NCBI GenBank assembly: GCA_965369655.1
Contig: CBDUQR010000037.1
Coordinates: forward strand, 1-27,768
Origin: an uncultured bacterium
GTDB taxonomy: Bacteria > Zixibacteria > MSB-5A5 > JAABVY01 > JAHJOQ01
Length of the DNA: 27,768 nt
Direction: 5' to 3'
Below are positions 14,810-25,734 of this stretch, one piece after another. Position numbers and translations under genes: made by a program. Position 1 is the stretch's first letter. The number at the start of each line of letters is the position of its first letter. Below the pieces are notes generated by a model, which saw only the letters and a program-made list of their open reading frames with translations, did not search any database and had not been told where the DNA came from.

Positions 14810-14849
14810 AACAGTCAATTTTCCAGTTCGATTGAATTGCACAAGAAAC

Positions 14850-14876
14850 AGGGTGAGCCAATGCGCTCACCCTTTG
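14850..14876 (+). terminator. Probable terminator after etfB
   Basis: AGGGTGAGC-CAATGC-GCTCACCCT hairpin with a short T tail. Confidence 0.6.
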
Positions 14877-14877
14877 C

Positions 14878-14932
14878 TGTTGTGTCAGTCCACACTTGTG
14901 GTAAGCCACAAGCAAGACCTGACACAACATTG
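14878..14932. repeat. RAYT-associated palindrome, copy 1
   Basis: Outer stem TGTTGTGTCAG...CTGACACAACA with inner hairpin CTTGTGG/CCACAAG. It is a near-identical direct repeat of 15523-15573. Confidence 0.85.
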
Positions 14933-14983
14933 AAAGTCTTTATACCTGCTAACGGGATTGTGACCTGGCGATCTTTTTCTGTT

Positions 14984-15020
14984 CTGTCAGGTCTTGCGCC
15001 GAAGGCGTGTGACCTGACAG
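14984..15020. repeat. RAYT-associated palindrome, copy 2 (inverted, different inner hairpin)
   Basis: CTGTCAGGTC-TTGC-GCCGAAGGC-GTGT-GACCTGACAG. Confidence 0.8.
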
Positions 15021-15030
15021 CGGAACACAT

Positions 15031-15510
15031 TTACATCCAGCCTTTCCAAATCGGCAATGGTCCTATTGTGTCTGCGAGATAATCACTGGCACTCGACCAT
15101 TTCCAGTCTTCAGGACTTCTCGCAAGCCCGCTTTTGACCGGGTTGTTGTGGATATACTCCAGCTTCGTTTGGAGAACATCTTCTGAGTATATCACCACTC
15201 TGTCATAACGTGGTTGCCAGATACCTCCAGTGATCCCGAAATCATAAGCCACTTTCTGAGACGTGTATTTCTTGAAATCCCGCATTAAATTGGACAACCT
15301 CTTGCCATCTACTAAAAGTAGCAGATGCAAATGGCTTGGCATTAGAGCGTAGCCGACAATTCTGGCTTCATATTTCCTGCAACAAAACTCAAGTGATTGA
15401 GCTAAAGCAGAGAGGAAACCTGGCATGTCACCAAGCCTCTCCCAGTGCTTGAAGGTTGTGGTAATGAAAAAGCAGTCCCCGAATTCCTGTCCCTTTGGCC
15501 GCAATCCCAT
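15031..15510 (-). CDS. REP-associated tyrosine transposase (RAYT, Y1 HUH family)
   Basis: Motifs FFITT, LMPSHLH (HUH), FKKYT, IWQ, YIHNNPV (catalytic Tyr) and DWKWSS. It is flanked by palindromes. Confidence 0.92.
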   Translation of the reverse strand: MGLRPKGQEFGDCFFITTTFKHWERLGDMPGFLSALAQSLEFCCRKYEARIVGYALMPSHLHLLLLVDGKRLSNLMRDFKKYTSQKVAYDFGITGGIWQPRYDRVVIYSEDVLQTKLEYIHNNPVKSGLARSPEDWKWSSASDYLADTIGPLPIWKGWM

Positions 15511-15516
15511 GATGCT

Positions 15517-15545
15517 AACATAGTGTCAGGTCACACTTGTGGCAA
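15517..15545 (-). promoter_or_regulatory. Putative RAYT promoter embedded in palindrome copy 3
   Basis: Minus strand reads TTGCCA-17 bp-TATGTT-6 nt-ATG. Confidence 0.55.
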
Positions 15546-15573
15546 GCCACAAGCAAGACCTGACACAACATTG
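15523..15573. repeat. RAYT-associated palindrome, copy 3
   Basis: GTGTCAGGTC-ACAC-TTGTGGCAAGCCACAA-GCAA-GACCTGACAC-AACATTG. Confidence 0.85.
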
Positions 15574-15601
15574 TATCAGCAGCTTGTCGTGTGCGAATCG
15601 C

Positions 15602-16414
15602 CTACTCACATTCAGAACAGGGGACAGGTCCTCCCCTGAACTCATAGTTCACCAGTCCCACTATATCAAGAAGATCGATCTTGTCATCGCAGTTGATATC
15701 TCCCGCCTGAAATGGTTCCGGGGGCGGTCCGTTGAGATAGATGAATGCGATCAGGTAGACGATGTCATCGATATCGATCCCTCCGATGCCGTCGGCATTT
15801 CCACAAATCTCAGAGAGCTTGACTACCGATACCGAACAGGGATTCTGTGAGTAGTGCGGTGTATAACCGGAACCGATGTTTGGATCAGCCGGGGTATGCT
15901 TGAATGCTCCGGCAGGCGGAAACAGAATCGAATCAAGATGCACTGTGAACCGGCCCGGCAGAGCCTGCTGGTCCCTGACAGCGAGATATATATCGGCGAC
16001 CTTGGAAGATTCTCCGATGGGCAGCAGGTTCGTGGAGAACGCCAATGCACCGTATTGGAATGCGTTCATCGTGTCACTCGGCATACGTCTGATTGCCGCG
16101 CCTCGGATATCGCCAACTCCGGGGTCGATGATTATCGTGTCGACGACAACGTTTGAGTCGACCGCCGGAGTCCACTCCTCGCCGCTCGTCCTTATTCTGA
16201 ACCCAAGCTGCAACCCTCCGAGACTGTCGTCAGTGAAGTGACAGGCTTCAATTGTGAACACTGTGTCGGTTGGCGTGAGTACCCAGATCGACTCCACAGG
16301 CATCAATCTGCATGTGTCTCGGATCCCGGGATCGGAGGCTTGACTCTGGGCAGCACAGATCTGGAAGGATAGAACTATGATTGTAAGCAGGGATGTGTTT
16401 ACCCAATATGCCAT
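15602..16414 (-). CDS. Secreted protein with a C-terminal dockerin type I-like domain and a possible cohesin-like beta-sandwich
   Basis: Signal peptide, plus duplicated Ca-loop/helix motifs CGNADGIGGIDIDDIVYLIAFIY and GDINCDDKIDLLDIVGLVNY. Confidence 0.85.
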   Translation of the reverse strand: MAYWVNTSLLTIIVLSFQICAAQSQASDPGIRDTCRLMPVESIWVLTPTDTVFTIEACHFTDDSLGGLQLGFRIRTSGEEWTPAVDSNVVVDTIIIDPGVGDIRGAAIRRMPSDTMNAFQYGALAFSTNLLPIGESSKVADIYLAVRDQQALPGRFTVHLDSILFPPAGAFKHTPADPNIGSGYTPHYSQNPCSVSVVKLSEICGNADGIGGIDIDDIVYLIAFIYLNGPPPEPFQAGDINCDDKIDLLDIVGLVNYEFRGGPVPCSECE

Positions 16415-16719
16415 GTGATATCCCCGGTATGGGGCGGTTCAGTTGTGATCTCACCGTACAGGGCGAAAGATACTGATTCGCACGCGAGTCAGCAAGTTAA
16501 ACTCCGGATGGAGTGGGTGTTCGATTTGCGCCGAATCTGATGGCAGGACAGTTTCATTCCTCGGCATGATCGACATCCCAGCGCAGAAACTGCGCAGGTC
16601 GGAGCGCGTAATGAGACGACGGGCTATTCAGGGGAGAGGAACATCTGCATTCGGCAGTCTGTTAATTGCCATAGAGATATGATCACGCAGAGGATTCTGA
16701 TTGTTGATGAAGAAAAGAC

Positions 16720-16748
16720 TTGACAAATTCTGCGCCAGGAGTTAAATA
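16720..16748 (+). promoter_or_regulatory. Putative sigma70 promoter for the small protein/TPR-bEBP operon
   Basis: TTGACA-17 bp-TAAATA in an AT-richer patch. The -10 element is imperfect. Confidence 0.45.
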
Positions 16749-16832
16749 ACAAACGGAGAGGTTATATCTACGATCATAGCAACAAGTTAATCTGTGGCGC
16801 AAGCCGTTTCTAATAAGTAGGAGGCGATCGAT

Positions 16833-17189
16833 ATGAAGCCTGCCGGACTCATGAAGCTCATTCTCTTGAGTTTCGCTCTGGTTGCCTTTTGGCTCGCTTC
16901 TGCTCCGGGCTTTGAGCATCCCTGGGATGACGATGAGGTCGTTGCCAGCGATTCGGGCGATGTCTACCTTGATGATATCACCCCTGAGCCGGGAACAGAA
17001 GAAATCGATGTTATCGTGTTCTTTGTTTCTCCGCGGTATTCAAGGCCATTCGGTTTTGGCCTGTTTATCATAAAAACCGGTGGAGGAACGGATGTCAGGA
17101 AAGACACGATCAGCAGAACTTCGATTCAGAGGACCAAAAGGCCGAGATCTGATCTGCCCGTTGGCAGACTGATTAACAATATGAAATGA
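16833..17189 (+). CDS. Small exported protein / candidate signalling propeptide
   Basis: AGGAGG lies 8 nt before the ATG. A signal peptide is followed by FEHPWDDDE. ATGA overlap with the next gene. Confidence 0.75.
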   Translation: MKPAGLMKLILLSFALVAFWLASAPGFEHPWDDDEVVASDSGDVYLDDITPEPGTEEIDVIVFFVSPRYSRPFGFGLFIIKTGGGTDVRKDTISRTSIQRTKRPRSDLPVGRLINNMK

Positions 17190-20137
17190 GTGCAAACCTA
17201 AGCAAGACTGAACACGTTGCCCCGGGAAGCCTGGACCACATTGAGTTGCTGATTTCTGAACTCAGGATTGATGATGCGGCTCAGGAACTAGAGAATTACC
17301 GGTCAAGGCTGAAGGCAAACCCAAGCCCAATCGCACAGGGCTGGGAACGTTACCTCTCTGCCCGAATCTCTCTGTCCCGTGCCGACTACCGAACTGCTTT
17401 GGAACTGGCGAAAAAATCGTTTGATGCGCTGCGCACGACCACTGAGAACAGCAAGATCGGCAAGATTCTTCTTTTGCTTGCAAAGATATCTCTTGCACTC
17501 GGAGACATGGAAGAGACTGAGAGTTACACGCGTGACGCTCTGGCGGCATTTCGCAGGATCAGGGACAGGGCCGGTATTTTCAGTTGCTACAATAAGCTGG
17601 CCTATGTGCACTTCGTTCGTGGTAGCTACGGGAAGTCGGCCAAGTATCTCCGGCGGACCATCGACAGCCTGCGCGGCCATGCGGTCGAGAACGAAAAAGC
17701 AGCTATCTCGCTTGCGCGCTACTCTGCGAACCTGGCCAGAGTGTACATACTTACCGGCGATTGGGATAAGGCAGCAGAGTTGCTCGAAGCCTGCATCGAA
17801 AAAAACCACCAGTATGGAGTCAAGCGATCGCTGATTCTGAACTACCTCTCGCTCGGATACCTGTCGACTCTTAAACGCAGCCAGCGTCATGCCTGGTACT
17901 GTCTCGAAGAAGCCAGACATCTGATCGAAAAGGAACCTCAGTACCTGCGTGAAGCCGTGATCCTGAAAGAATACCTCGGCAAGTACTACACAGAGTTTGG
18001 TGAGTCAGAAAAGGCGGTGAAAGTTCTTTCCGCGGGAATGATCGAAGCCGACCAGATTGCTCCTGACAGCGCTCTTACATCTCAGCTCTGCAGGCTCAGA
18101 GCCGAAGCCTTTCTTTCATTGGGAGAATTCGAAGACGCCCTTGCGGATGCAGAGCGTTCATTGCTGGTTGCCGAAAAGCTGGGTGAAAAGGTCGAGATCG
18201 CCCATTCGCTGCGCCTCGCCGGTATCGCCAAGGTTCGCCTTGGCGAGAAGAAGTGCGGCGTGCGGTTCCTGCACAAGTCCGAGGAGGCTTTCAGCGGACT
18301 TGGTGACAAATATGAAAAGGCGAGAGCGCTTCTTGATTTCGCGACCGATGGGTTTGTTCACGACTCCGAATACGACTACCGTCGCGCCCAGGCACATATT
18401 GTGACTGCAAGGTTTACTTTCGAAGAGTTGGAGAGCAGGTACTATCTGGCTGAGACCTGGATGGTCGAGGCAGCTCTCCATGAGCGTTACGGGAAATATG
18501 ATCTTGCGCTGAGGGCGGTCGAGGAAGCCGAGGGTCTGTTCGGATCGCTCGGAGAGATCGACAGGACTCGTATGGTTCGGGCGATGCGGCAGGCGATGGA
18601 GTCCAAACTTGTCGACCATGCGCTGTCGCCTCAGAACGAGTTCCTGCTGTTCAAGGAGTATCTCAACGACAACGAGTATATGAATGTGCGGCAGGGTAGT
18701 CTTACTGCCAATCTCGATGTTCTCACGAGGAGAATCGGAGCTGACTGTGCGATTGTAGCGATCGGCAATTCGGCGGATAGCGGTTTCAAGGTTCTCGCAT
18801 CGGTAAGGCTTGAAGATGACCGAGCCAGGAGCGTACTGAGGCAGGTGCGACCTTCTAACATAAATGAACTCAATGGAAGACCCGTGTTTGCATCTGCGCC
18901 GGATTTTGCCGGTGCTAACGGGTTCTCGAATCTCATCGACCAATTCCCCGAAGCTACAAGTGTAATGCTTCTTTCGCTGAGAATATCGGATCGGGAGACA
19001 GGCATGCTGCTGCTCACGAGAGACGCCGCAAGTTTGGGTGGGAAGTTCTTCGGCCAGCGTGACCTGAACTTCGCCGTGGCGTTCTCCGATGTGATTGTAT
19101 TCAAGGCAATCGAACAAGAGCAACAGGAACTCGCAGAAGACAATCGACGGCTCAGGCAGCAACTTGGCGAGAAGTGTGCATTCCCGAATATTGTCACGCG
19201 TGATGAAACGATACTACGCTTACTCGACAGGGTCGTGCAAGTGAAGGACTCACCAATATCCATCCTGATCGAAGGCGAGACCGGCAGTGGCAAGGATCTG
19301 ATTGCCAGCGCGTTACACTACAATTCGATCAGAGCGGGCAAGCGTTTTATCAGTGTCAACTGTGCGGCGCTTCCTGAGACATTGCTCGAGAGCGAACTGT
19401 TCGGATACAAGCGTGGAGCTTTCACCGGTGCGGATCGTGACAAAGCCGGACTGTTCGAGGAGGCCGACGGCGGGACTTTTTTCCTCGACGAAATCGGTGA
19501 GATGCCGTTGTCTATCCAGGTGAAGCTGCTGAGGGTTCTCGAAGACCAGGAGGTGGTCAGGCTCGGCGAGACCAGCGGGCGGAAAGTTGATGTTCGTGTC
19601 TTGTCGGCTACTAACAGGGATTTGAAAGTCGCGATGGCCGAAGGGGTGTTTCGGCAGGATCTCTACTATCGCCTCTCCGCGCTGACGCTGAAAATACCAC
19701 CGCTCCGTGACAGGCGTTCTGATATCCCATTGCTGATCGATCACTTCATGGAGAAGAGCGAGCGACAGATCAGGTTTGATCCGGAGGCGGCTCGGAAGCT
19801 GATAGAATATTCATGGCCCGGAAATGTTCGTGAACTAGAGAACGAAATCAGGAAACTCGTACTTCTGTGCGATTCGAGCGGCGTCGTCGACACAGACCTT
19901 CTTTCGAGGAAGTTCACTCGGGACCAGTCTGCGAGTGAAGCGCCGGATATCCCCGAACTCGACATATCGGCCAACGGATTCTCGCTCTATTCATACATTG
20001 AGGAATTCGAGAAGAAGTACCTGACCAAGGCTCTCAGTCAACACAACTGGGTCAAAAAGCATGCCGCAGCCGCGCTCAAGATTCCTGAATCGACTCTGCG
20101 CCTTAAGATCAAACAGTACGGTATCCAGAAGCCGTAG
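17186..20137 (+). CDS. sigma54-dependent transcriptional activator with a long TPR array, GAF-like domain, AAA+ and Fis-type HTH
   Basis: About 480 aa of TPR-like helical repeats, then GETGSGKD (Walker A), VNCAAL, ESELFG, GAFTGA (19415-19432), FLDEIGE, FRQDLYYRL, WPGNVREL and a C-terminal HTH. Confidence 0.93.
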   Translation: MSANLSKTEHVAPGSLDHIELLISELRIDDAAQELENYRSRLKANPSPIAQGWERYLSARISLSRADYRTALELAKKSFDALRTTTENSKIGKILLLLAKISLALGDMEETESYTRDALAAFRRIRDRAGIFSCYNKLAYVHFVRGSYGKSAKYLRRTIDSLRGHAVENEKAAISLARYSANLARVYILTGDWDKAAELLEACIEKNHQYGVKRSLILNYLSLGYLSTLKRSQRHAWYCLEEARHLIEKEPQYLREAVILKEYLGKYYTEFGESEKAVKVLSAGMIEADQIAPDSALTSQLCRLRAEAFLSLGEFEDALADAERSLLVAEKLGEKVEIAHSLRLAGIAKVRLGEKKCGVRFLHKSEEAFSGLGDKYEKARALLDFATDGFVHDSEYDYRRAQAHIVTARFTFEELESRYYLAETWMVEAALHERYGKYDLALRAVEEAEGLFGSLGEIDRTRMVRAMRQAMESKLVDHALSPQNEFLLFKEYLNDNEYMNVRQGSLTANLDVLTRRIGADCAIVAIGNSADSGFKVLASVRLEDDRARSVLRQVRPSNINELNGRPVFASAPDFAGANGFSNLIDQFPEATSVMLLSLRISDRETGMLLLTRDAASLGGKFFGQRDLNFAVAFSDVIVFKAIEQEQQELAEDNRRLRQQLGEKCAFPNIVTRDETILRLLDRVVQVKDSPISILIEGETGSGKDLIASALHYNSIRAGKRFISVNCAALPETLLESELFGYKRGAFTGADRDKAGLFEEADGGTFFLDEIGEMPLSIQVKLLRVLEDQEVVRLGETSGRKVDVRVLSATNRDLKVAMAEGVFRQDLYYRLSALTLKIPPLRDRRSDIPLLIDHFMEKSERQIRFDPEAARKLIEYSWPGNVRELENEIRKLVLLCDSSGVVDTDLLSRKFTRDQSASEAPDIPELDISANGFSLYSYIEEFEKKYLTKALSQHNWVKKHAAAALKIPESTLRLKIKQYGIQKP

Positions 20138-20208
20138 CAATTCCCCTTATTCTCACAGACACTGTTCGACCGTTGATATTTCCGTGTCATTGGTGGATTC
20201 TGTATTCT

Positions 20209-20237
20209 TTGCTTCTGATGCATCCATTGTATATTAT
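20209..20237 (+). promoter_or_regulatory. Putative sigma70 promoter (leaderless transcript)
   Basis: TTGCTT-17 bp-TATTAT-7 nt-ATG20245. Confidence 0.5.
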
Positions 20238-20244
20238 TCGGAAC

Positions 20245-21096
20245 ATGCGTACCGAATCGACAGACCCTCCTGCAGATAATCTCAGGCCGCTCGTAATCAC
20301 GGACGAGCGTTCCGATGGGTCCGCTGCCTATAATATGGCGCTGGATGAGTTGCTGCTCGATTCAGATCTGGCGTCTGGTCGTCTCGTCTGCAGGCTCTAC
20401 GGATGGCGCCCGGCTGCGGTTTCGATCGGTCGAAATCAGAAAGTTGCTGAATCTGTCAATATGGATGTTCTTCGGGAGGCGGATATCTCTCTTGTCAGGC
20501 GGCCTACAGGTGGGCGCGCGATTTGGCATGGCGGAGATGTCTGTTTTACATTCAGCGGACTCACACTCGGATCGGGTCAGGAAGTCTCGGCGTTCAAGAG
20601 CGATTACATGCGCGCGGCCTCGGCAATTGTTCGGATGCTCAGGTTTCTCGGAATTCAGGCGAACATCTCTGCCGGACGACCGATCGGCCAAGTTCCTGGA
20701 GGGGTCAAAAGCCCCTGCTTCCAGAGCTCAGGCAGATTCGAGATTACCGCAGGCGGCAGGAAAATGGTTGGAATCGCACAGTACCGGTTGGGTGATCGAT
20801 TCCTGATTCAGGGATCGATCAGGCGTTCAGCAATCGATGAGATGTATCGGAAGCTTTTCTTCGCGCCGGGCGATGTCGGGGACGCGGCGTATGATCAGTT
20901 GCGAAATACAGTGACGTCTATCGAGGAGATCATGAGGCGAAAGGTCGAATTCGGTGAGTTGCTCAAAGCATTCGTGTACAGCATCGAAGCACGGCTGTCA
21001 AACCGGATCGAATGGGCAGCTCATGTCGATAGGGCAACAATAGATAATATGAAAAATGAGAAATTCGACAACCGGGAATGGAACTACAGGTTTTGA
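20245..21096 (+). CDS. Lipoate-protein ligase family protein, LipM-like octanoyltransferase
   Basis: Motifs NMALDE, RLYGW, SIGRNQ, RRPTGGRAIWH, PCF, GRKMVGIAQ and QGSI. There is no LplA C-terminal domain. Confidence 0.88.
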   Translation: MRTESTDPPADNLRPLVITDERSDGSAAYNMALDELLLDSDLASGRLVCRLYGWRPAAVSIGRNQKVAESVNMDVLREADISLVRRPTGGRAIWHGGDVCFTFSGLTLGSGQEVSAFKSDYMRAASAIVRMLRFLGIQANISAGRPIGQVPGGVKSPCFQSSGRFEITAGGRKMVGIAQYRLGDRFLIQGSIRRSAIDEMYRKLFFAPGDVGDAAYDQLRNTVTSIEEIMRRKVEFGELLKAFVYSIEARLSNRIEWAAHVDRATIDNMKNEKFDNREWNYRF

Positions 21097-21335
21097 ATTC
21101 AACGTTTTCCCCCCGAATCAGTCTTAGTATATGGCGGACAAGCGAAAAAGCCCAAAAAGGGCTTGACACAACGGAGGTCGATTATGCTAATTAGGGCCTT
21201 ATGTAACAAGCACGTACCAGCCAGGGAAATGGGTGCGTGTTGTGCTGAGTTTAGCTACTTATACGGGCTCTTGAGCGCCGAGTTTCGCAGTTTATGAAAT
21301 AATGTTGTTCGCAGTATAGGACAGGAGGAGTGCAT

Positions 21336-24300
21336 ATGTTTCGTACCAGAAGAATGGTTCTGGTTTCGTTGGCGACTCTCATGGTTCTCTCCATTTGCGG
21401 CGTGACACAGGCCGCCGTGACCGGAAAAATCCAGGGATATGTTGTTGATAAAAAAACCGGCGAGGCGCTGATGAGTGTGGCAGTTCAGATTGTGGGAACC
21501 ACACAGGGTGATCTGACCGGTTCTGATGGCGACTACCTGATCTTGAATGTTCCAGCCGGAATCTATTCAGTAAAGTTCAGACTTGTCGGTTACAAGACTG
21601 TTCAGGTGGACGAAGTTCAGGTGATTACCGGACGTACCACCGATGTGACGGTCCAGATGGAAACGACTTCTATTGAGTCGGATATCGTGATAAGGGTGCA
21701 AGCCGAGCGAGACATCATGGAGATGACTAAGCCGACGAGCAATGTGACTATTTCAAAAGAGCAGATGGCAGTGATGCCGGTTCAAAATGTGGATGAGATT
21801 CTGGCGACGTCGGTTGGCGTCGTGAGGGGCCGTGATGGCGAGCTCCACATTAGGGGCGGTCGAAGCGGCGAGGTCTCGTATGTTGTGGATGGCGTTGAGA
21901 CCAAAGACCCGCTCGGCGGTCTCGGGCCGACCACAGCTGGCATGAACCTTTCGTCGAATACGATCGAGGAAATCCAGATCATCAAGGGCGGGTACGATCC
22001 GGAATATGGTCGCGCGATGTCCGGCATTGTTTCGATCAATACCAGGACCGGCACACAGACGACCATAGGGGAAATAGAGTTCTACACCGACAATTTCCGT
22101 GCCCCGAATCTTAACAAGTACTCCAACAATTTCGACAGGGTTTCCTTCGCGCTTGGCGGTCCTGAACCGTTTGTGGCCGGCCGGATATTGCCTGCGCTTG
22201 GAGTCGACTATTTCAAGGACAAACTCCTGTACTTCTTCTCGATTGATACGTACAAGACTGATGGCGGCTACTCCTTCAAGGAGTACACTTCGCCCGACAG
22301 GCAGCGTGACTGGCTCCAGAGGAATGTGCTCGGTTTCGATCTTCGCGATCGCCAGTTGAACAGTTTCGCGCTAACGAGCAACCTGACTTACAGAGTAACG
22401 AACAATATCAGGATGGTGTTCCACTACCAGGGCATTTGGCAGGATGAGACTATATTCTGGTGGAGTTACCGTTACACTCCTGCTACGGCGCCGGTAGGCA
22501 ATGACGTCAATCACAGGTTGTCCATGGCGTTTACGCACCAGCTAAACAAGTCGACATTTTACGAATTCCTCGTTGCGCGAGTATACCACGAGTACGCCAG
22601 AAAGCCCGATGATCCAAACAATCCGGGCTACGGTCGTACAGCGAAGAGTTTCCGGTTTGAGGACGAGTATGAGAGTTACACTGACAGGAATGGCAATGGC
22701 GTCTATGATGAGCCAGAGCCGTTTATCAATGTGTACTACGATACGAGCCATACTCATGGCGGTTCGCAGTACAATTTTGGCGATGTGTTTGTGTACAACG
22801 ACGAAGAAGAGCCGTACCACCTGTACGATCCGTGGGGGATTGACGATGAAATCTACCGATTTGATCCTGGGATGTTGGAGGATGATTACGTCTATAGTTA
22901 CGTCGACACGATCCTATGGGATTGGAACGGAGACGGTCACATCGGCTATAGCGATGGCGAGCCGTTTGTAGACCTGAACAACAACGGCAGGTGGGATCGA
23001 GGAGATAAGGTCGACAATGATCAGAATGGGAATAACAGATTCGATCCCGAACTTTCCAAAGTTCTTGTGGACAATCTGGTTGAGCCTTATACCGATGGCG
23101 ACGTCAACCTTGGTGAACCGTTCGATGACCTGAACGGTAATGGTGTTTACGATGAAGGCATTGACCGCTGGATGGGGTCGTTTGATCCGACAAGAAACCA
23201 GGATCTGAATAACAACGGCAAGTATGATGGTCCGGATGATCCGTGGACACGCGGAATTCCTTACATTGACCTCAACGCCAACGGCATCTACGATCCGCCA
23301 AACAGGTATTACGATAAAGGCGAGCCTTTCGTTGACTTGAATGGCAACAACAAGTGGGACCAGCCTACTGCATTTCTGATCGGTGGCTACCACGAGGGAA
23401 TCACCGGACCGGGTGAAGAAGCCCCCCACTTCCATGAAAACAGTTCAGAAACCTGGACGTTTGATTTCAAGCTCACCAAGCAACTCGTTCGTGAACATGA
23501 GTTGAAGACAGGATTCCAGATATTGCTGCGGGATTTCGATTATTCGGAGATGTCGAACCCGTGGTTTCGCCGCACGGGCGAGGAAGCCCTGCCTGACGGA
23601 GGGCCGTATCCGGATCGGGGTGCGAGACGTGATTTTTACCATCACGATCCGATCGAGGGAGCGTTTTTCCTTCAGGATATCGTAGAATATGGTTCTCTCG
23701 TTGCAAGGCTCGGATTCAGGTATGATTTCTTCTTCCAATCCAATGCGGTCGACTCTCTGGTTCCACACTTCGTGGAATATGGTAAAGGTGCAGTAGTCGA
23801 CAGTCGCGGTAAGATATCGCCGAGACTCGGGATATCATATCCTATCAGTGAAAGAGCCAAGATATATTTCAACTATGGACATTTCTATCAGTTGCCTCCG
23901 TACACTCGTATGTATCGCAGGCTCGGCCAGGACCGTGGCACGATTGGGAACCCTAATTTGGATTACCAGAAGACCGTGCAGTACGAGTTCGGAGTGCGCT
24001 ACAACCTGTCCGGCGACTATGTGCTCGATATTGCAGGCTTCTATAAAGACATCTTCGGAATTGTCAACGGTCAGCTCCTCAGCAGCGAGGCTAAGGGCTT
24101 GTACGATTTCGAGAATAGCGACTATGGTCGCGCCAGGGGTTTTGAGATTCAGCTCGAGAAGAGATATGGTGATTTCGTGTCCGGTTCAGTCAACTACACT
24201 TATGCGTTCGCTTATGGCAAGGCCTCGTCCGATCTGTCGAATTTCGAGGATCTTGCAGCAAACAGGAAGACTCCGATCAAGGAGTTTCCACTGGACTGGG

Positions 24301-24758
24301 ATATTCGTCATCTTCTCAATGTGAATTTCAGCTTGAGGATATCCAGAGCTGATCATCCCAGGCTGTTTGGTTATTCGATTCCGAACGATTGGTGGATCAA
24401 TTTCACCTGGCAGTTGCATTCAGGTTATCCGTTCACACCGGGTGAAAACTATCCGAATATGGAGGAGGAGGGGGGCGGAGTTCCTCTGACCAACTCTCTC
24501 AGAAAACCAAGCTTCTCGAACGTGAATGCGAGGTTCAGCAAAAGCTTCTCGATGGTCGGGATCGATTACTCGTTCCAGCTCTGGATCGACAATATCTTCG
24601 ATACCAGGAATATCGAGGACTTGCATGAGGAGACCGGTCGACCCGACACGAAGTCAATCGTCGGTGGCGTGGTCATTGGCGGAACCGACTATGATCAGGT
24701 CCCCTGGTATTACAGCCCGGGGCGAAACGTGAAAATCGGATTGACAATGAATTTCTGA
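21336..24758 (+). CDS. TonB-dependent receptor with an N-terminal carboxypeptidase-regulatory-like domain and an inserted Asp/Asn-rich repeat region
   Basis: Signal peptide, TGKIQGYVVDKKTGEAL, plug motifs LHIRGGRSGEVSYVVDG and GGYDPEYGRAMSGIV, barrel motifs SPRLGISYP and GNPNL, and a terminal Phe. RBS AGGAGG. Confidence 0.92.
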   Translation: MFRTRRMVLVSLATLMVLSICGVTQAAVTGKIQGYVVDKKTGEALMSVAVQIVGTTQGDLTGSDGDYLILNVPAGIYSVKFRLVGYKTVQVDEVQVITGRTTDVTVQMETTSIESDIVIRVQAERDIMEMTKPTSNVTISKEQMAVMPVQNVDEILATSVGVVRGRDGELHIRGGRSGEVSYVVDGVETKDPLGGLGPTTAGMNLSSNTIEEIQIIKGGYDPEYGRAMSGIVSINTRTGTQTTIGEIEFYTDNFRAPNLNKYSNNFDRVSFALGGPEPFVAGRILPALGVDYFKDKLLYFFSIDTYKTDGGYSFKEYTSPDRQRDWLQRNVLGFDLRDRQLNSFALTSNLTYRVTNNIRMVFHYQGIWQDETIFWWSYRYTPATAPVGNDVNHRLSMAFTHQLNKSTFYEFLVARVYHEYARKPDDPNNPGYGRTAKSFRFEDEYESYTDRNGNGVYDEPEPFINVYYDTSHTHGGSQYNFGDVFVYNDEEEPYHLYDPWGIDDEIYRFDPGMLEDDYVYSYVDTILWDWNGDGHIGYSDGEPFVDLNNNGRWDRGDKVDNDQNGNNRFDPELSKVLVDNLVEPYTDGDVNLGEPFDDLNGNGVYDEGIDRWMGSFDPTRNQDLNNNGKYDGPDDPWTRGIPYIDLNANGIYDPPNRYYDKGEPFVDLNGNNKWDQPTAFLIGGYHEGITGPGEEAPHFHENSSETWTFDFKLTKQLVREHELKTGFQILLRDFDYSEMSNPWFRRTGEEALPDGGPYPDRGARRDFYHHDPIEGAFFLQDIVEYGSLVARLGFRYDFFFQSNAVDSLVPHFVEYGKGAVVDSRGKISPRLGISYPISERAKIYFNYGHFYQLPPYTRMYRRLGQDRGTIGNPNLDYQKTVQYEFGVRYNLSGDYVLDIAGFYKDIFGIVNGQLLSSEAKGLYDFENSDYGRARGFEIQLEKRYGDFVSGSVNYTYAFAYGKASSDLSNFEDLAANRKTPIKEFPLDWDIRHLLNVNFSLRISRADHPRLFGYSIPNDWWINFTWQLHSGYPFTPGENYPNMEEEGGGVPLTNSLRKPSFSNVNARFSKSFSMVGIDYSFQLWIDNIFDTRNIEDLHEETGRPDTKSIVGGVVIGGTDYDQVPWYYSPGRNVKIGLTMNF
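22675..23367 (+). repeat. Eight intragenic (E)PF-x-D-x-N-x-N-G-x-[YWF]-D protein repeats
   Basis: DRNGNGVYD, DWNGDGHIG, DLNNNGRWD, DQNGNNRFD, DLNGNGVYD, DLNNNGKYD, DLNANGIYD and DLNGNNKWD. Confidence 0.85.
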
Positions 24759-24804
24759 GTAAGAGTATAGATATTTACTGTTTACGACAGGCTTGGAGGT
24801 ATAT

Positions 24805-25734
24805 ATGAAATATCGTAGTTTGGTTCTTCTTCTTCTTCTTCTGTTGCCATCGGTTGCGCTCTGCCAGTCGAAAGTCGGCCAGGCCGGTGCACAGTTTCTC
24901 GAAATAGGCGTTTCTGCGAGAGCAGTAGCTCTCGGAAACGCTTTTACCGCTGTTTCGGACGATGCTACGGCGGTATTCTATAATCCTTCGGGTCTGACAC
25001 AGTTGGATCAGAAGGAGATTGTGCTGACTCATATCTCATACGTCGCGGACATCAATTACGAATTCGCGGTGATCGCGCTGCCGCTTTACAGTTTCGGAGG
25101 CACGCTTGCGTTTTCGTTCTATGCGCTCGATGCAGGCGATATGCTCGAGACGACATATCAGAACTCACTGGGCACGGAAGGCCGCACTTTCACAGCCCAG
25201 GACCATGCGTTGGGGGTCAGTTACGCCCGCAGTCTGACGGATCACTTCAGCGTTGGCGTTACATGGAAGTTCATCGAGGAGAGGTATGCGGAAGAGAGAT
25301 CGATGGGCTGGGCGGCGGATGTCGGCACCACGTTCGATACGGGTTATCGCGGTATTAAGATGTCTATGGTGATCTCGAATTTCGGTCCGGACATGAGATT
25401 CATTACCGAGGACTATCCTCTTCCGATCAACTTCAAGTTCGGCGGCACCTTGAATCTGTTGGAAGGAGCCGATCACCGTGCAACATTCTCCGCTGAGGGA
25501 TCTCACCCGTCGGACAACTATGAATCGTACAATCTGGGTATGGAGTACAGTTACTCCGAGAAATACGCCCTGAGAATCGGTCAGAAGTTCCAGGAAGATT
25601 CAGCCTCCGGTATCGCATTGGGAGCCGGGCTGAGGTTGCCCATTTCCGATTACAGTCTTGGGATCGACTACGGGTTTCATGACTTCGGATTGCTGAGGAA
25701 CATTCACATGTTCACCGTCTCGATGAGATTTTAG
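24805..25734 (+). CDS. PorV/PorQ-like (UPF0164, FadL-like) outer-membrane beta-barrel
   Basis: Signal peptide, GAQFLEIGVSARAVALGNAFTAVSDDATAVFYNPSGL, amphipathic strands and a terminal Phe. Confidence 0.85.
   Translation: MKYRSLVLLLLLLLPSVALCQSKVGQAGAQFLEIGVSARAVALGNAFTAVSDDATAVFYNPSGLTQLDQKEIVLTHISYVADINYEFAVIALPLYSFGGTLAFSFYALDAGDMLETTYQNSLGTEGRTFTAQDHALGVSYARSLTDHFSVGVTWKFIEERYAEERSMGWAADVGTTFDTGYRGIKMSMVISNFGPDMRFITEDYPLPINFKFGGTLNLLEGADHRATFSAEGSHPSDNYESYNLGMEYSYSEKYALRIGQKFQEDSASGIALGAGLRLPISDYSLGIDYGFHDFGLLRNIHMFTVSMRF

Follow-up and report, generated by a model that had tools for sequence, protein, structure and literature searches.

Communication by exported peptides that are read inside the cell by receptors built of tetratricopeptide repeats (TPR) is textbook biology of the Bacillota and their phages. 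To our knowledge, double-membraned bacteria are held to lack such peptide/TPR signalling and to use small molecules as signals, and we know of no cultured representative of the Zixibacteria, the diderm phylum considered here. A passage of one published account likewise describes peptide signals as a Bacillota mode (PMC10075063). The subject of this work is a pair of adjoining genes in a stretch of 27,768 nucleotides (nt), henceforth the window (the whole stretch of DNA that was analysed), from an uncultured Zixibacteria bacterium (contig CBDUQR010000037.1 of assembly GCA_965369655.1, positions 1 to 27,768 of the forward strand). The first gene encodes a small protein with a predicted signal peptide, and the second a predicted cytoplasmic activator in which a TPR array precedes a sigma54-interacting AAA+ motor. 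The module formed by the two is real, strongly non-random, phylum-wide, and unannotated, and the comparisons set out below make it probable that the TPR array has the small protein, or part of it, as its direct ligand. Judged by titles and abstracts, the literature yielded no account of a sigma54 activator that has a TPR sensor and a partner peptide, nor any work on peptide signalling or sigma54 in Zixibacteria.

The small gene (16833-17189, plus strand; ORF (open reading frame) listing and raw sequence) encodes 118 amino acids, and the ribosome-binding site AGGAGG lies 8 nt 5' of its ATG (16819-16824, plus strand). The N-terminus of the product, MKPAGLMKLILLSFALVAFWLASAPG, contains a hydrophobic core with a hydrophobicity (KD19) of 2.12, and residues 1-26 (16833-16910) are predicted to form a Sec signal peptide. 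Signal peptides were judged in this work by hydrophobicity (KD19) and the (-3,-1) rule only; on this rule-of-thumb reading, a cut at A-P-G/F that would give a mature protein starting F-E-H-P-W-D is more likely than one after ASA, because the latter would leave Pro at +1. FEHPWDDDE occupies residues 27-35, with the HPWD motif (residues 29-32; 16917-16928) being the sole conserved element of the mature protein in the orthologue alignment. It is followed by an acidic stretch, a hydrophobic patch (IDVIVFFV...FGFGLFII) that is interrupted by two Arg, and a basic tail, and the TGA of the ORF overlaps the ATG of the regulator at 17186 (ATGA). Much of this anatomy had been proposed in an initial annotation of the window, namely a 118-residue ORF with a strong ribosome-binding site and a signal peptide, an EHPWDDD motif near the mature N-terminus ahead of an acidic linker, a hydrophobic patch, and a basic tail, and an ATGA overlap with a cytoplasmic regulator whose first half is a TPR array. 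All of these features are present, the signal peptide as judged by simple rules. The small protein has no match in Pfam or NCBIfam and no usable match in the ESM Atlas, and its named relatives are annotated as 'hypothetical protein' of Zixibacteria only.

The regulator (17186-20137, plus strand; Pfam and structure models) has 983 residues with a maximum KD19 of 1.34, such that neither a transmembrane segment nor a signal peptide is predicted. Residues 15-479 (17228-18622) form a TPR superhelix of 23 helices in the AlphaFold model and are proposed to be the ligand-binding sensor; the model of residues 1-665, made with 19 orthologues, has a predicted local distance difference test (pLDDT) score of 87.8 and shows a continuous superhelix, of which Pfam TPR families match only what lies within about residues 55-245. 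A GAF domain, absent from the initial annotation, follows at about residues 482-620 (18629-19045). When residues 478-665 were modelled alone (pLDDT 82.6), the Foldseek matches listed from the PDB were GAF domains or GAF-containing proteins (E from 6.6e-6, probability 1.00), including bacteriophytochrome, Lcd1, DosS, and PtsP, and no Pfam GAF match was obtained in the regulator at E<=0.01. A long linker helix (624-664, ~40 residues) joins the GAF domain to the sigma54-interaction AAA+ domain at residues 669-835 (19190-19690; PF00158, E 1.2e-66), in which the GAFTGA loop can be read at residues 744-749 (19415-19432). AAA_lid_14 is matched after Sigma54_activat, and a Fis-type HTH_8 domain closes the protein at residues 938-978 (19997-20119; PF02954, E 2.6e-11). 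With a GAFTGA-bearing AAA+ domain, a C-terminal Fis-type HTH, and an rpoN gene in the genome (Sigma54_DBD match E 1.2e-54, contig C1), the protein is a bona fide enhancer-binding protein. It reaches the cut-off of no NCBIfam equivalog (NorR, NifA, PrdR, RtcR, NtrC, PspF, LuxO, etc.); NorR came closest, with 325 bits where 476 are required, and every match was confined to the AAA+ and HTH parts, from residue 596 onward. In the ~800-residue paralogues introduced below, the TPR array abuts the AAA+ domain without a GAF domain, so that the TPR array is the only sensory domain there. The sigma54-contact loop, GAFTGA in the orthologues, reads GAYTGA in eight class-P1 activators and one of class P2 (L166), GSYTGA in L171, and GSFTGA in L172.

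A same-strand small signal-peptide ORF was found directly upstream of the regulator gene in 95/95 evaluable loci of Candidatus Zixiibacteriota, a set that comprises orthologues together with ~800-residue paralogues. The recurrence of an upstream exported ORF, which the initial annotation had made a test of its proposal, is accordingly complete among these loci. The first 20 orthologous loci all carried an upstream ORF (106-132 amino acids) whose end lies anywhere from 3 nt inside the regulator start to 64 nt short of it, with a hydrophobic N-terminus followed by [E/D]-[H/D/N]-P-W-D, and GGAGG stands before the chosen start of each. Another 18 loci (17 new and one duplicate), seven of them ~800-residue paralogues, gave 18/18. 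A third set was drawn from ranks 31-95 of the TPR-domain match list, omitting the already counted G014, G032, G033, and G025 and the contig-edge G220; contig ends left only 277 and 73 nt of two of its 60 upstream regions, and the remaining 58 evaluable regions, along which regulator identity drops to about 27-35%, all contained the ORF (55 with [HDN]PW, one with HTW, and two with EHP[ED]QE). The spacing of the two genes differs between families, as the small ORF ends 3 nt into the regulator start in 6/6 loci of family f1 (L001-L005, L012) and is separated from it by gaps of 1-64 nt, with ribosome sites of their own, in other families. One locus (L168:9242-10023) has two tandem small HPW ORFs of 131 and 115 amino acids before a single activator, and the same contig holds a second complete pair 3 kb upstream.

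The distribution of the module is broad. Full-length activator orthologues (36-83% identity) are present in 28/41 genomes (27/40 relatives and this one), and the TPR domain (residues 1-480) is matched in 249/285 genomes of the phylum (~87%), or 173/198 among those of good quality. Four families gave no match to the TPR-domain query (f3 0/3, f4 0/5, f9 0/10, and f19 0/14). Many genomes have two to five TPR-domain matches, the extra frames being about 780-830 residues long, and the close relatives of the TPR domain belong to Candidatus Zixiibacteriota (4 loci, narrow alignment).

Conservation of the small protein is concentrated in its motif. P30, W31, and D32 are invariant in the 20 orthologues, and across all 95 aligned small proteins the mean column identity is 15%, with only the start Met and the H, P, and W columns being near-invariant (His in 84/95, Pro in 92/95, Trp in 93/95). 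The motif, whose conservation the initial annotation had asked for, is hence the only conserved part of the upstream ORF. The His is swapped for Asp, Asn, or Glu in 11/95; the residue after HPW is Asp, Glu, or Gly in 87/95, and that before it Glu or Asp in 68/95. A profile of the 95 sequences searched against 1.84 billion representative proteins returned 316 matches at E<=1e-3, the best 150 of which measure 79-156 residues and contain [HDN]PW in 149 cases and HPWD in 102.

The remaining features of the small proteins vary. A transmembrane-like N-terminal segment is found in 95/95, and a second one (KD19 >= 1.6) in only 6/95 (median 1.02). By the (-3,-1) rule, the motif His falls within the first five predicted mature residues in 76/95 and at position 3 in 40/95; in the paralogues, 15-25 residues separate the motif from the signal peptide, and it is part of a conserved FGP[IV]V[IL]xGHPWG[DE]. 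The chain beyond the motif is net acidic in 84/95 and the last 25 residues net basic in 75/95. An aromatic segment (at least four W/F/Y in 12 residues) occurs in 60/95; it resembles two short beta strands in family f1 and a Trp-rich helix in families f2, f8, and f13, and one paralogue class has NFxxxFYLxYxVKK there. Tails from different families could not be aligned, and some proteins (e.g. L045, L090, L102) have an acidic tail or none.

The 2.99-Mb genome of the window itself served as a chance control. Among 44,609 ORF/start combinations of 60-200 residues, 1,556 have a signal-peptide-like N-terminus, and only two distinct ORFs among these have [HD]PW[DEG] at residues 16-70; each of these immediately precedes one of the two TPR-sigma54 genes, the only ones in the genome. 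The second such pair is on contig C29 (1921-4493, minus strand), where a 113-residue signal-peptide ORF with GDPWDD (C29:4152-4493, minus strand) precedes an activator of ~740-779 residues with TPR, AAA+, and HTH parts, a GAFTNA loop, and no GAF domain. A third TPR match of the genome, on contig C8, is a generic TPR protein. At the C29 pair a different palindrome, TACCATATTAATGGTA, overlaps the promoter-like region.

A set of sensor residues is as invariant as the motif. Comparison of 19 orthologues and eight paralogues (27-83% overall identity) revealed 12 invariant polar residues in the TPR array (D117, R123, R124, N136, N182, R185, S222, E262, Y263, Q300, R303, and E337), nine of which are situated on alternate ('A') helices of the model (128-144, 170-190, 213-229, 254-270, 296-312, and 335-351). 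The A helices of TPR arrays line the concave groove. N219, kept in 18/19 orthologues and replaced by D, S, C, or A in the paralogues, is a candidate specificity position, although this comparison is confounded by descent. An invariant sensor surface paired with an invariant partner motif would be expected of a conserved docking core with variable flanks, and arbitrium peptides, with their conserved core and variable flanks, offer a precedent.

The initial annotation had further asked whether the small ORF co-varies with the TPR domain, and its class does follow the TPR clade. On a quick maximum-likelihood tree of 50 TPR domains, the five hand-assigned small-ORF classes require four changes, the minimum for five classes, against a mean of 18.4 in shuffles (0/200 as low). 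Since relatives share labels by descent, the tree shows that the pairs were duplicated and kept as units and does not speak to co-adaptation.

Kinship of the sensor to the receptors of the RRNPP family, in contrast, did not hold up. The closest solved folds among the matches listed were the TPR domain of LGN/Pins (E 3.6e-10) and APC5 (TM-score 0.55 over the query), and domain III of MalT was matched with a TM-score of 0.75 over the target. In a profile search of the PDB, LGN stood at 3.6e-20 and Rap proteins at only 7.7e-7, 5.1e-6, and 6.4e-4, which is generic TPR likeness. The comparison with RRNPP structures that the initial annotation had called for indicates that the array is not an RRNPP homologue by fold or by sequence rank.

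The co-folding proposed in the same annotation was carried out with the full mature protein (residues 24-118) and the TPR-GAF part (1-665), with alignments for both and three controls. The interface score (ipSAE) was 0.44, 0.48, and 0.44 against 0.00 for the controls, and the verdict was graded 'weak support'. The runs share at least 28% of contacts, with a partner pLDDT of 31-32. For calibration, the pass mark was reached by 58/80 solved complexes and 2/110 mismatched pairs, and at scores <=0.60 by 7/80 and both of the mismatches. Given the strong genomic prior, this prediction may be taken as no more than a small push towards binding.

Regulatory sequences around the pair point to a shared DNA site. 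Upstream of the small gene lies a perfect palindrome, GCGCAGAAACTGCGC (16581-16595, unstranded), with the core CGCA-N5-TGCG, which emerged from sequence comparison as a candidate operator or upstream activating sequence; further on, a sigma70-type promoter-like site, TTGACA-17 nt-TAAATA, can be read at 16720-16748 (plus strand). Within the 350 nt preceding the small ORF, 19/20 orthologous loci have CGCA-N5-TGCG, versus 11/223 control windows. Its CGCA/TGCG arms are constant while the centre varies, so that it fits a protein-binding DNA site and not an RNA stem. In families f8, f13, and f17, the palindrome stands at a fixed 28 nt before CTTGAC. (C)TTGAC[AT] itself is found 105-152 nt 5' of the small-ORF ATG in 20/20 orthologous loci, with a TAnnAT-like hexamer 17-18 nt on. 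A loose sigma54 scoring matrix gave 2,308 hits in the genome and was uninformative. With regard to small RNAs, Rfam returned 0 matches for the window, and comparison of the loci brought up no conserved unit of promoter and terminator.

A different arrangement precedes the HPWG[DE] class of paralogues, in which TGGCG[CT]A[AG]TTTTTGC lies 87-96 nt before the small-ORF ATG in 9/9 loci and a CGCA-N6-TGCG palindrome about 125 nt further upstream in 8/9. This sigma54 promoter recurs in five further loci, and the activators of the class carry GAYTGA. Autoregulation of one paralogue class is suggested because a canonical sigma54 promoter and upstream palindromes precede the pair; most simply, CGCA-N5/6-TGCG would be the binding site of the activator family, at least one class of which would drive its own operon.

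Direct partnership of the two proteins is the best reading of these findings taken together: the genes are paired, the motif and the TPR residues are invariant, and the paralogues have no other sensor. The fuller proposal is that the two genes constitute a cognate signal/receptor module, RRNPP-like in logic, with a complete export-and-return route. The Sec system would export the small protein, and signal peptidase would expose an N-terminus of the form x-x-His-Pro-Trp-Asp. The acidic linker may then permit the release of a short HPW peptide from the aromatic and basic C-terminal part, and this peptide would re-enter the cytoplasm through a peptide permease. There it may settle in the concave TPR groove against the invariant Arg, Asn, Glu, Tyr, and Gln residues, a placement that draws on their conservation and on the weak complex prediction. 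Occupancy of the TPR array, together with input from the GAF domain, would finally switch the assembly of the AAA+ ring and with it sigma54-dependent transcription, in the paralogues including that of the pair itself. The export-and-return route is preferred because a signal peptide and a cleavable junction are universal and the motif sits at or near the free N-terminus, and because the linker looks disordered and cuttable and one class, with a sigma54 promoter that it would drive itself, shows the classic layout of autoinduction. We place the probability of this module with its export-and-return route at roughly 0.4. Extended to the phylum, it is possible, though we would not call it probable, that Zixibacteria use Sec-exported HPW peptides which re-enter the cell and are read by TPR sensors mounted on sigma54 AAA+ motors, convergent with and non-homologous to RRNPP systems, with a core copy in the majority of the phylum and, in some lineages, as many as five or so private paralogous channels, at least one class of which would be self-inducing.

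A number of observations weigh against the signal/receptor module. Foremost is topology, since prediction puts the motif outside the cytoplasm but the sensor within it, and an extracellular signal would have two membranes to recross. The same HPW core is found in all paralogous pairs of one genome, so that specificity must sit in the flanks or cross-talk would ensue. The small proteins have two to three times the length of RRNPP propeptides, an aromatic segment, for which a mere propeptide would have no need, is recognisable in 60/95, and their conserved element lies at the N-terminal end of the mature part, the conserved element of RRNPP propeptides being usually at the C-terminal end. The signal peptides rest on simple rules. 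No RRNPP receptor is among the best 50 Foldseek matches listed, which are LGN, APC subunits, MalT, and designed TPRs. The score of the complex prediction falls in a band in which, short of a high prior, most passes are wrong, and no interface was reported. Strict patterns found no -24/-12 element near the pair of the window or its orthologues, where a sigma70-type promoter is present instead. With regard to uptake, neither a transporter nor a protease is tied to the orthologous pair. A candidate peptide uptake system in the genome, with one OPT match and one SBP_bac_5 match, does count in favour of the route; OPT is equally present in families without the pair, and the palindrome shared with the pair precedes OPT in only 2/22 pair-bearing genomes (this one and G003).

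That palindrome before the OPT gene (contig C40:1161-3243, minus strand; also seen at locus L143) reads CGCAGTTTCTGCG and lies ~35 nt before a CTTGACT promoter-like site; CGCAG-[AT]3-CTGCG has further copies on contigs C6, C7, C10, and C33, making six sites in all versus ~0.4 expected by a rough estimate. A link between the module and the OPT transporter was considered as support and dropped, in view of the 2/22 and of the OPT genes in pair-less families.

The serious rival is an inhibitor that acts as the unexported precursor, a variant of the envelope-located inhibitor or chaperone that the initial annotation had raised as its alternative. The precursor would bind the TPR array through HPW and hold the activator off (or on) until Sec export clears it, making the pair an export-relieved anti-activator or a sensor of Sec capacity whose output would follow the rate of clearance, on the pattern of FlgM/sigma28 or ExsE. 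Such a mechanism solves the topology without any transporter and accounts for the pairing, the motif, and the TPR conservation equally well; it agrees with a signal peptide that is never lost (95/95), and a motif 0-5 residues from the predicted cut in 76/95 is as expected if the signal-peptide junction were what is recognised, whereas the paralogues place the motif 15-25 residues past the signal peptide. In nifLA the inhibitor gene is upstream and coupled, with stoichiometric co-synthesis, and the small gene is upstream and ATGA-coupled in the same manner in family f1 (6/6 loci), yet this translational coupling is not conserved elsewhere, where gaps of 1-64 nt and separate ribosome sites are found. 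An inhibitor behind a self-driven sigma54 promoter would provide homeostatic negative feedback. General Sec export, however, is fast and constitutive, unlike the gated secretion of FlgM or ExsE, and the retained linker and aromatic segment would be left without a role. On balance we consider the export-relieved precursor unlikely.

Improbable as well, in our assessment, is that the small protein is operon cargo, that is, an exported effector with an extracytoplasmic job, for instance at the envelope or the cell surface (HPW being meant for a periplasmic partner, a protease, or a metal), with the TPR array sensing something else. The first place of the small gene behind a sigma54 promoter and palindromes in the HPWG[DE] class would make it a plausible regulated product of the activator; in the orthologous operon, by comparison, no -24/-12 promoter was found, so that the small gene is not a sigma54 target there. 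Features suited to the envelope, namely the acidity after the motif (84/95), the basic tail (75/95), and the aromatic richness (60/95), agree with an effector, as do the rhomboid protease operon that adjoins one paralogue class in 5/12 loci and the grade of weak support for the complex. Yet cargo would not explain why no third gene is as constant as the pair (best neighbour 13/20 versus 95/95) or why the paralogues have no sensor other than the TPR array, whose polar residues are as invariant across classes as HPW is, which is hard to explain with an unrelated, class-specific ligand.

Far less probable is a membrane hairpin, close to the envelope-located inhibitor of the initial annotation, in which an uncleaved anchor and a second span would place HPW and an acidic loop in the periplasm and a basic tail in the cytoplasm, where the tail would bind the TPR array and tether the activator. 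The charges do obey the positive-inside rule (acidic loop 84/95, basic tail 75/95), but a second segment reaches KD19 >= 1.6 in only 6/95 (median 1.02), the patch of the window's protein is broken by its two Arg, tails cannot be aligned from one family to the next and are acidic or absent in some proteins (L045, L090, and L102 among them), and what is conserved is the would-be periplasmic motif and not the tail.

Three further candidates were rejected: an amino-terminal copper- and nickel-binding (ATCUN)-type site as a general function, as the His is at mature position 3 in only 40/95, is replaced in 11/95, and lies 8-15 residues from the nearest rule-compatible cut in the paralogues; a translation-arrest or secretion-monitor leader of the SecM/MifM type, as the conserved element is by the signal peptide instead of at the C-terminus and coupling is not conserved; and a PEP-CTERM/LPXTG-like sorting signal, as patch and tail are conserved neither in sequence nor in type, with acidic ends in some.

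Downstream of the pair on the plus strand follow an LplA/B-like ligase gene (20173-21096, with the true start probably near 20245), a gene for a 1142-residue outer-membrane protein with CarboxypepD_reg, Plug, and TonB-barrel parts (21330-24758), and one for a PorV/FadL-like outer-membrane protein (24793-25734), all three assigned by Pfam and syntenic in 12/20, 13/20, and 12/20 orthologous loci, respectively. They are possibly members of the same unit as the pair. On the upstream side, plsX-fabH-fabD-fabG-fabF, rnc, and an electron transfer flavoprotein (ETF)-like gene show synteny in 4-8/20 loci. No neighbour is as constant as the pair itself, with the best at 13/20 loci against 95/95. Between the ligase gene and that of the 1142-residue protein (window 21097-21329) lies a CTTGACA-type promoter with a 150-230-nt leader, which most of the 14 compared loci retain; the -35 before the 1142-residue gene overlaps, in family f1, a hairpin, AAGCCCAAAAAGGGCTT, that scores as a terminator on the minus strand.

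In family f2 orthologues, a palindrome, TCGCAGAATTTGCGA, and then TTGGCAYG-N4-TTTGT are located ~220 nt after the regulator stop and before the LplA-like gene, which suggests that this gene may be a sigma54 target in that family; no such palindrome and sigma54-like promoter precede the LplA-like gene of the window. The f2 element is sigma54-like with T at -12 and lies about 85 nt before the LplA-like gene, and in the 100-230-nt zone 3' of the stop (loci L006-L011, L055, and L056) the regulator has a terminator hairpin with a CGCAG…TGC loop.

Between the ETF-like gene and the pair, the window carries two genes that break the synteny of other genomes. One is an IS200-like Y1 transposase (15031-15510, minus strand; PF01797, E 3.6e-9), which seems flanked by a repeated element because the spurious ORFs 14837-15082 and 15445-15639 both translate to …HTCGKPQARPDTTL…; with these flanks it resembles the REP (repetitive extragenic palindromic)-associated tyrosine transposases. 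The next gene (15602-16414, minus strand) encodes a 270-residue secreted protein with no Pfam family, in which a C-terminal dockerin-like D/N-rich repeat can be read, and it has no counterpart near the pair in 20 other loci. A -24/-12-like sequence, CGGAGTTTAACTTGCT, is present on the minus strand at 16506, which is 76 nt from the palindrome and 92 nt before the ATG of this gene; it was rejected as a conserved sigma54 promoter, being without counterpart in the 18 other orthologous loci scanned.

The rhomboid operon mentioned above is divergent from the pair in five of the 12 paralogue loci (L163, L167, L168, L171, and L174), all of the GHPWG[DE] class, and also encodes a receiver-domain protein, a DsbD_TM/CcdA-like protein, DUF6599, a Tat-signal DUF362 protein, and a polyferredoxin. 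A rhomboid adjoining a small signal-anchored protein is a lead as to processing. The two rhomboids of the window's own genome are located elsewhere, away from the pair.

Should the peptide be the ligand, the reach of peptide signalling would widen, enhancer-binding proteins would gain a TPR array as input, and a portable ligand-gated sigma54 switch would be at hand; should the precursor instead be an export-relieved inhibitor, it would represent a new way of coupling transcription to Sec export. Either way, the module gives a function-level handle on the Zixibacteria phylum.

Amongst known systems, LuxO shares with the activator the use of a sigma54 activator as an output of cell signalling, and its NCBIfam match here is a generic AAA+ one below the cut-off; LuxO differs in being fed by a phosphorelay from membrane kinases that sense small molecules, and has neither TPR nor a peptide gene. 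LGN/Pins and domain III of MalT provide the closest solved folds and sequences to the sensor among the matches listed. Extended peptides lie in the inner groove of LGN, and in MalT a TPR-like sensor is coupled to an ATPase and to DNA binding. LGN is a eukaryotic scaffold, however, and MalT a STAND ATPase that senses maltotriose, works with sigma70, and has no partner gene. The FlgM-sigma28 and ExsE-ExsC-ExsD-ExsA systems resemble the pair in combining an exported small protein with a cytoplasmic transcription factor, where export itself could be the signal; they depend on gated type III export without TPR or sigma54, as opposed to the ordinary Sec-type signal peptide predicted here.

Closer in output are NifL-NifA, PspA-PspF, and HrpV-HrpS, in which a separately encoded partner controls an enhancer-binding protein; the present regulator is likewise a sigma54 AAA+ activator, with GAFTGA and HTH_8, and the co-transcribed small protein is its proposed control. 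Their partners are cytoplasmic and act on the AAA+ domain, whereas the partner here has a signal-peptide-like N-terminus (95/95) and its presumed docking site is a 465-residue TPR array, of a kind for which the literature listings gave no precedent in an enhancer-binding protein.

Closest in logic are the RRNPP(A) systems (Rap-Phr, NprR-NprX, PlcR-PapR, PrgX, Rgg-SHP, and AimR-AimP), which likewise set a cytoplasmic TPR-type sensor beside a small gene with a Sec signal, can be present as several paralogous pairs per genome (here up to five or so), and diversify as units; at least one class here lies behind a promoter of its own regulator's kind. The differences are equally plain: the hosts are diderm Zixibacteria, the output is a sigma54 AAA+ motor with a C-terminal HTH_8 instead of an N-terminal HTH or a phosphatase, the small gene is upstream and encodes 77-132 residues with a conserved element that is N-terminal in the mature part and a universal HPW core, and the TPR array is not an RRNPP homologue by rank. 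The RRNPP analogy drawn in the initial annotation consequently stands for gene architecture and logic (the 95/95 pairing, the motif, and the tracking of classes) and falls for kinship of the receptor in fold and sequence. The module would work like an RRNPP system without being a member, because it differs from that family in receptor homology, type of output, and taxon; RRNPP signalling was itself discovered through genomic signatures of this kind, but here the parts are unrelated and the output is a sigma54 motor.

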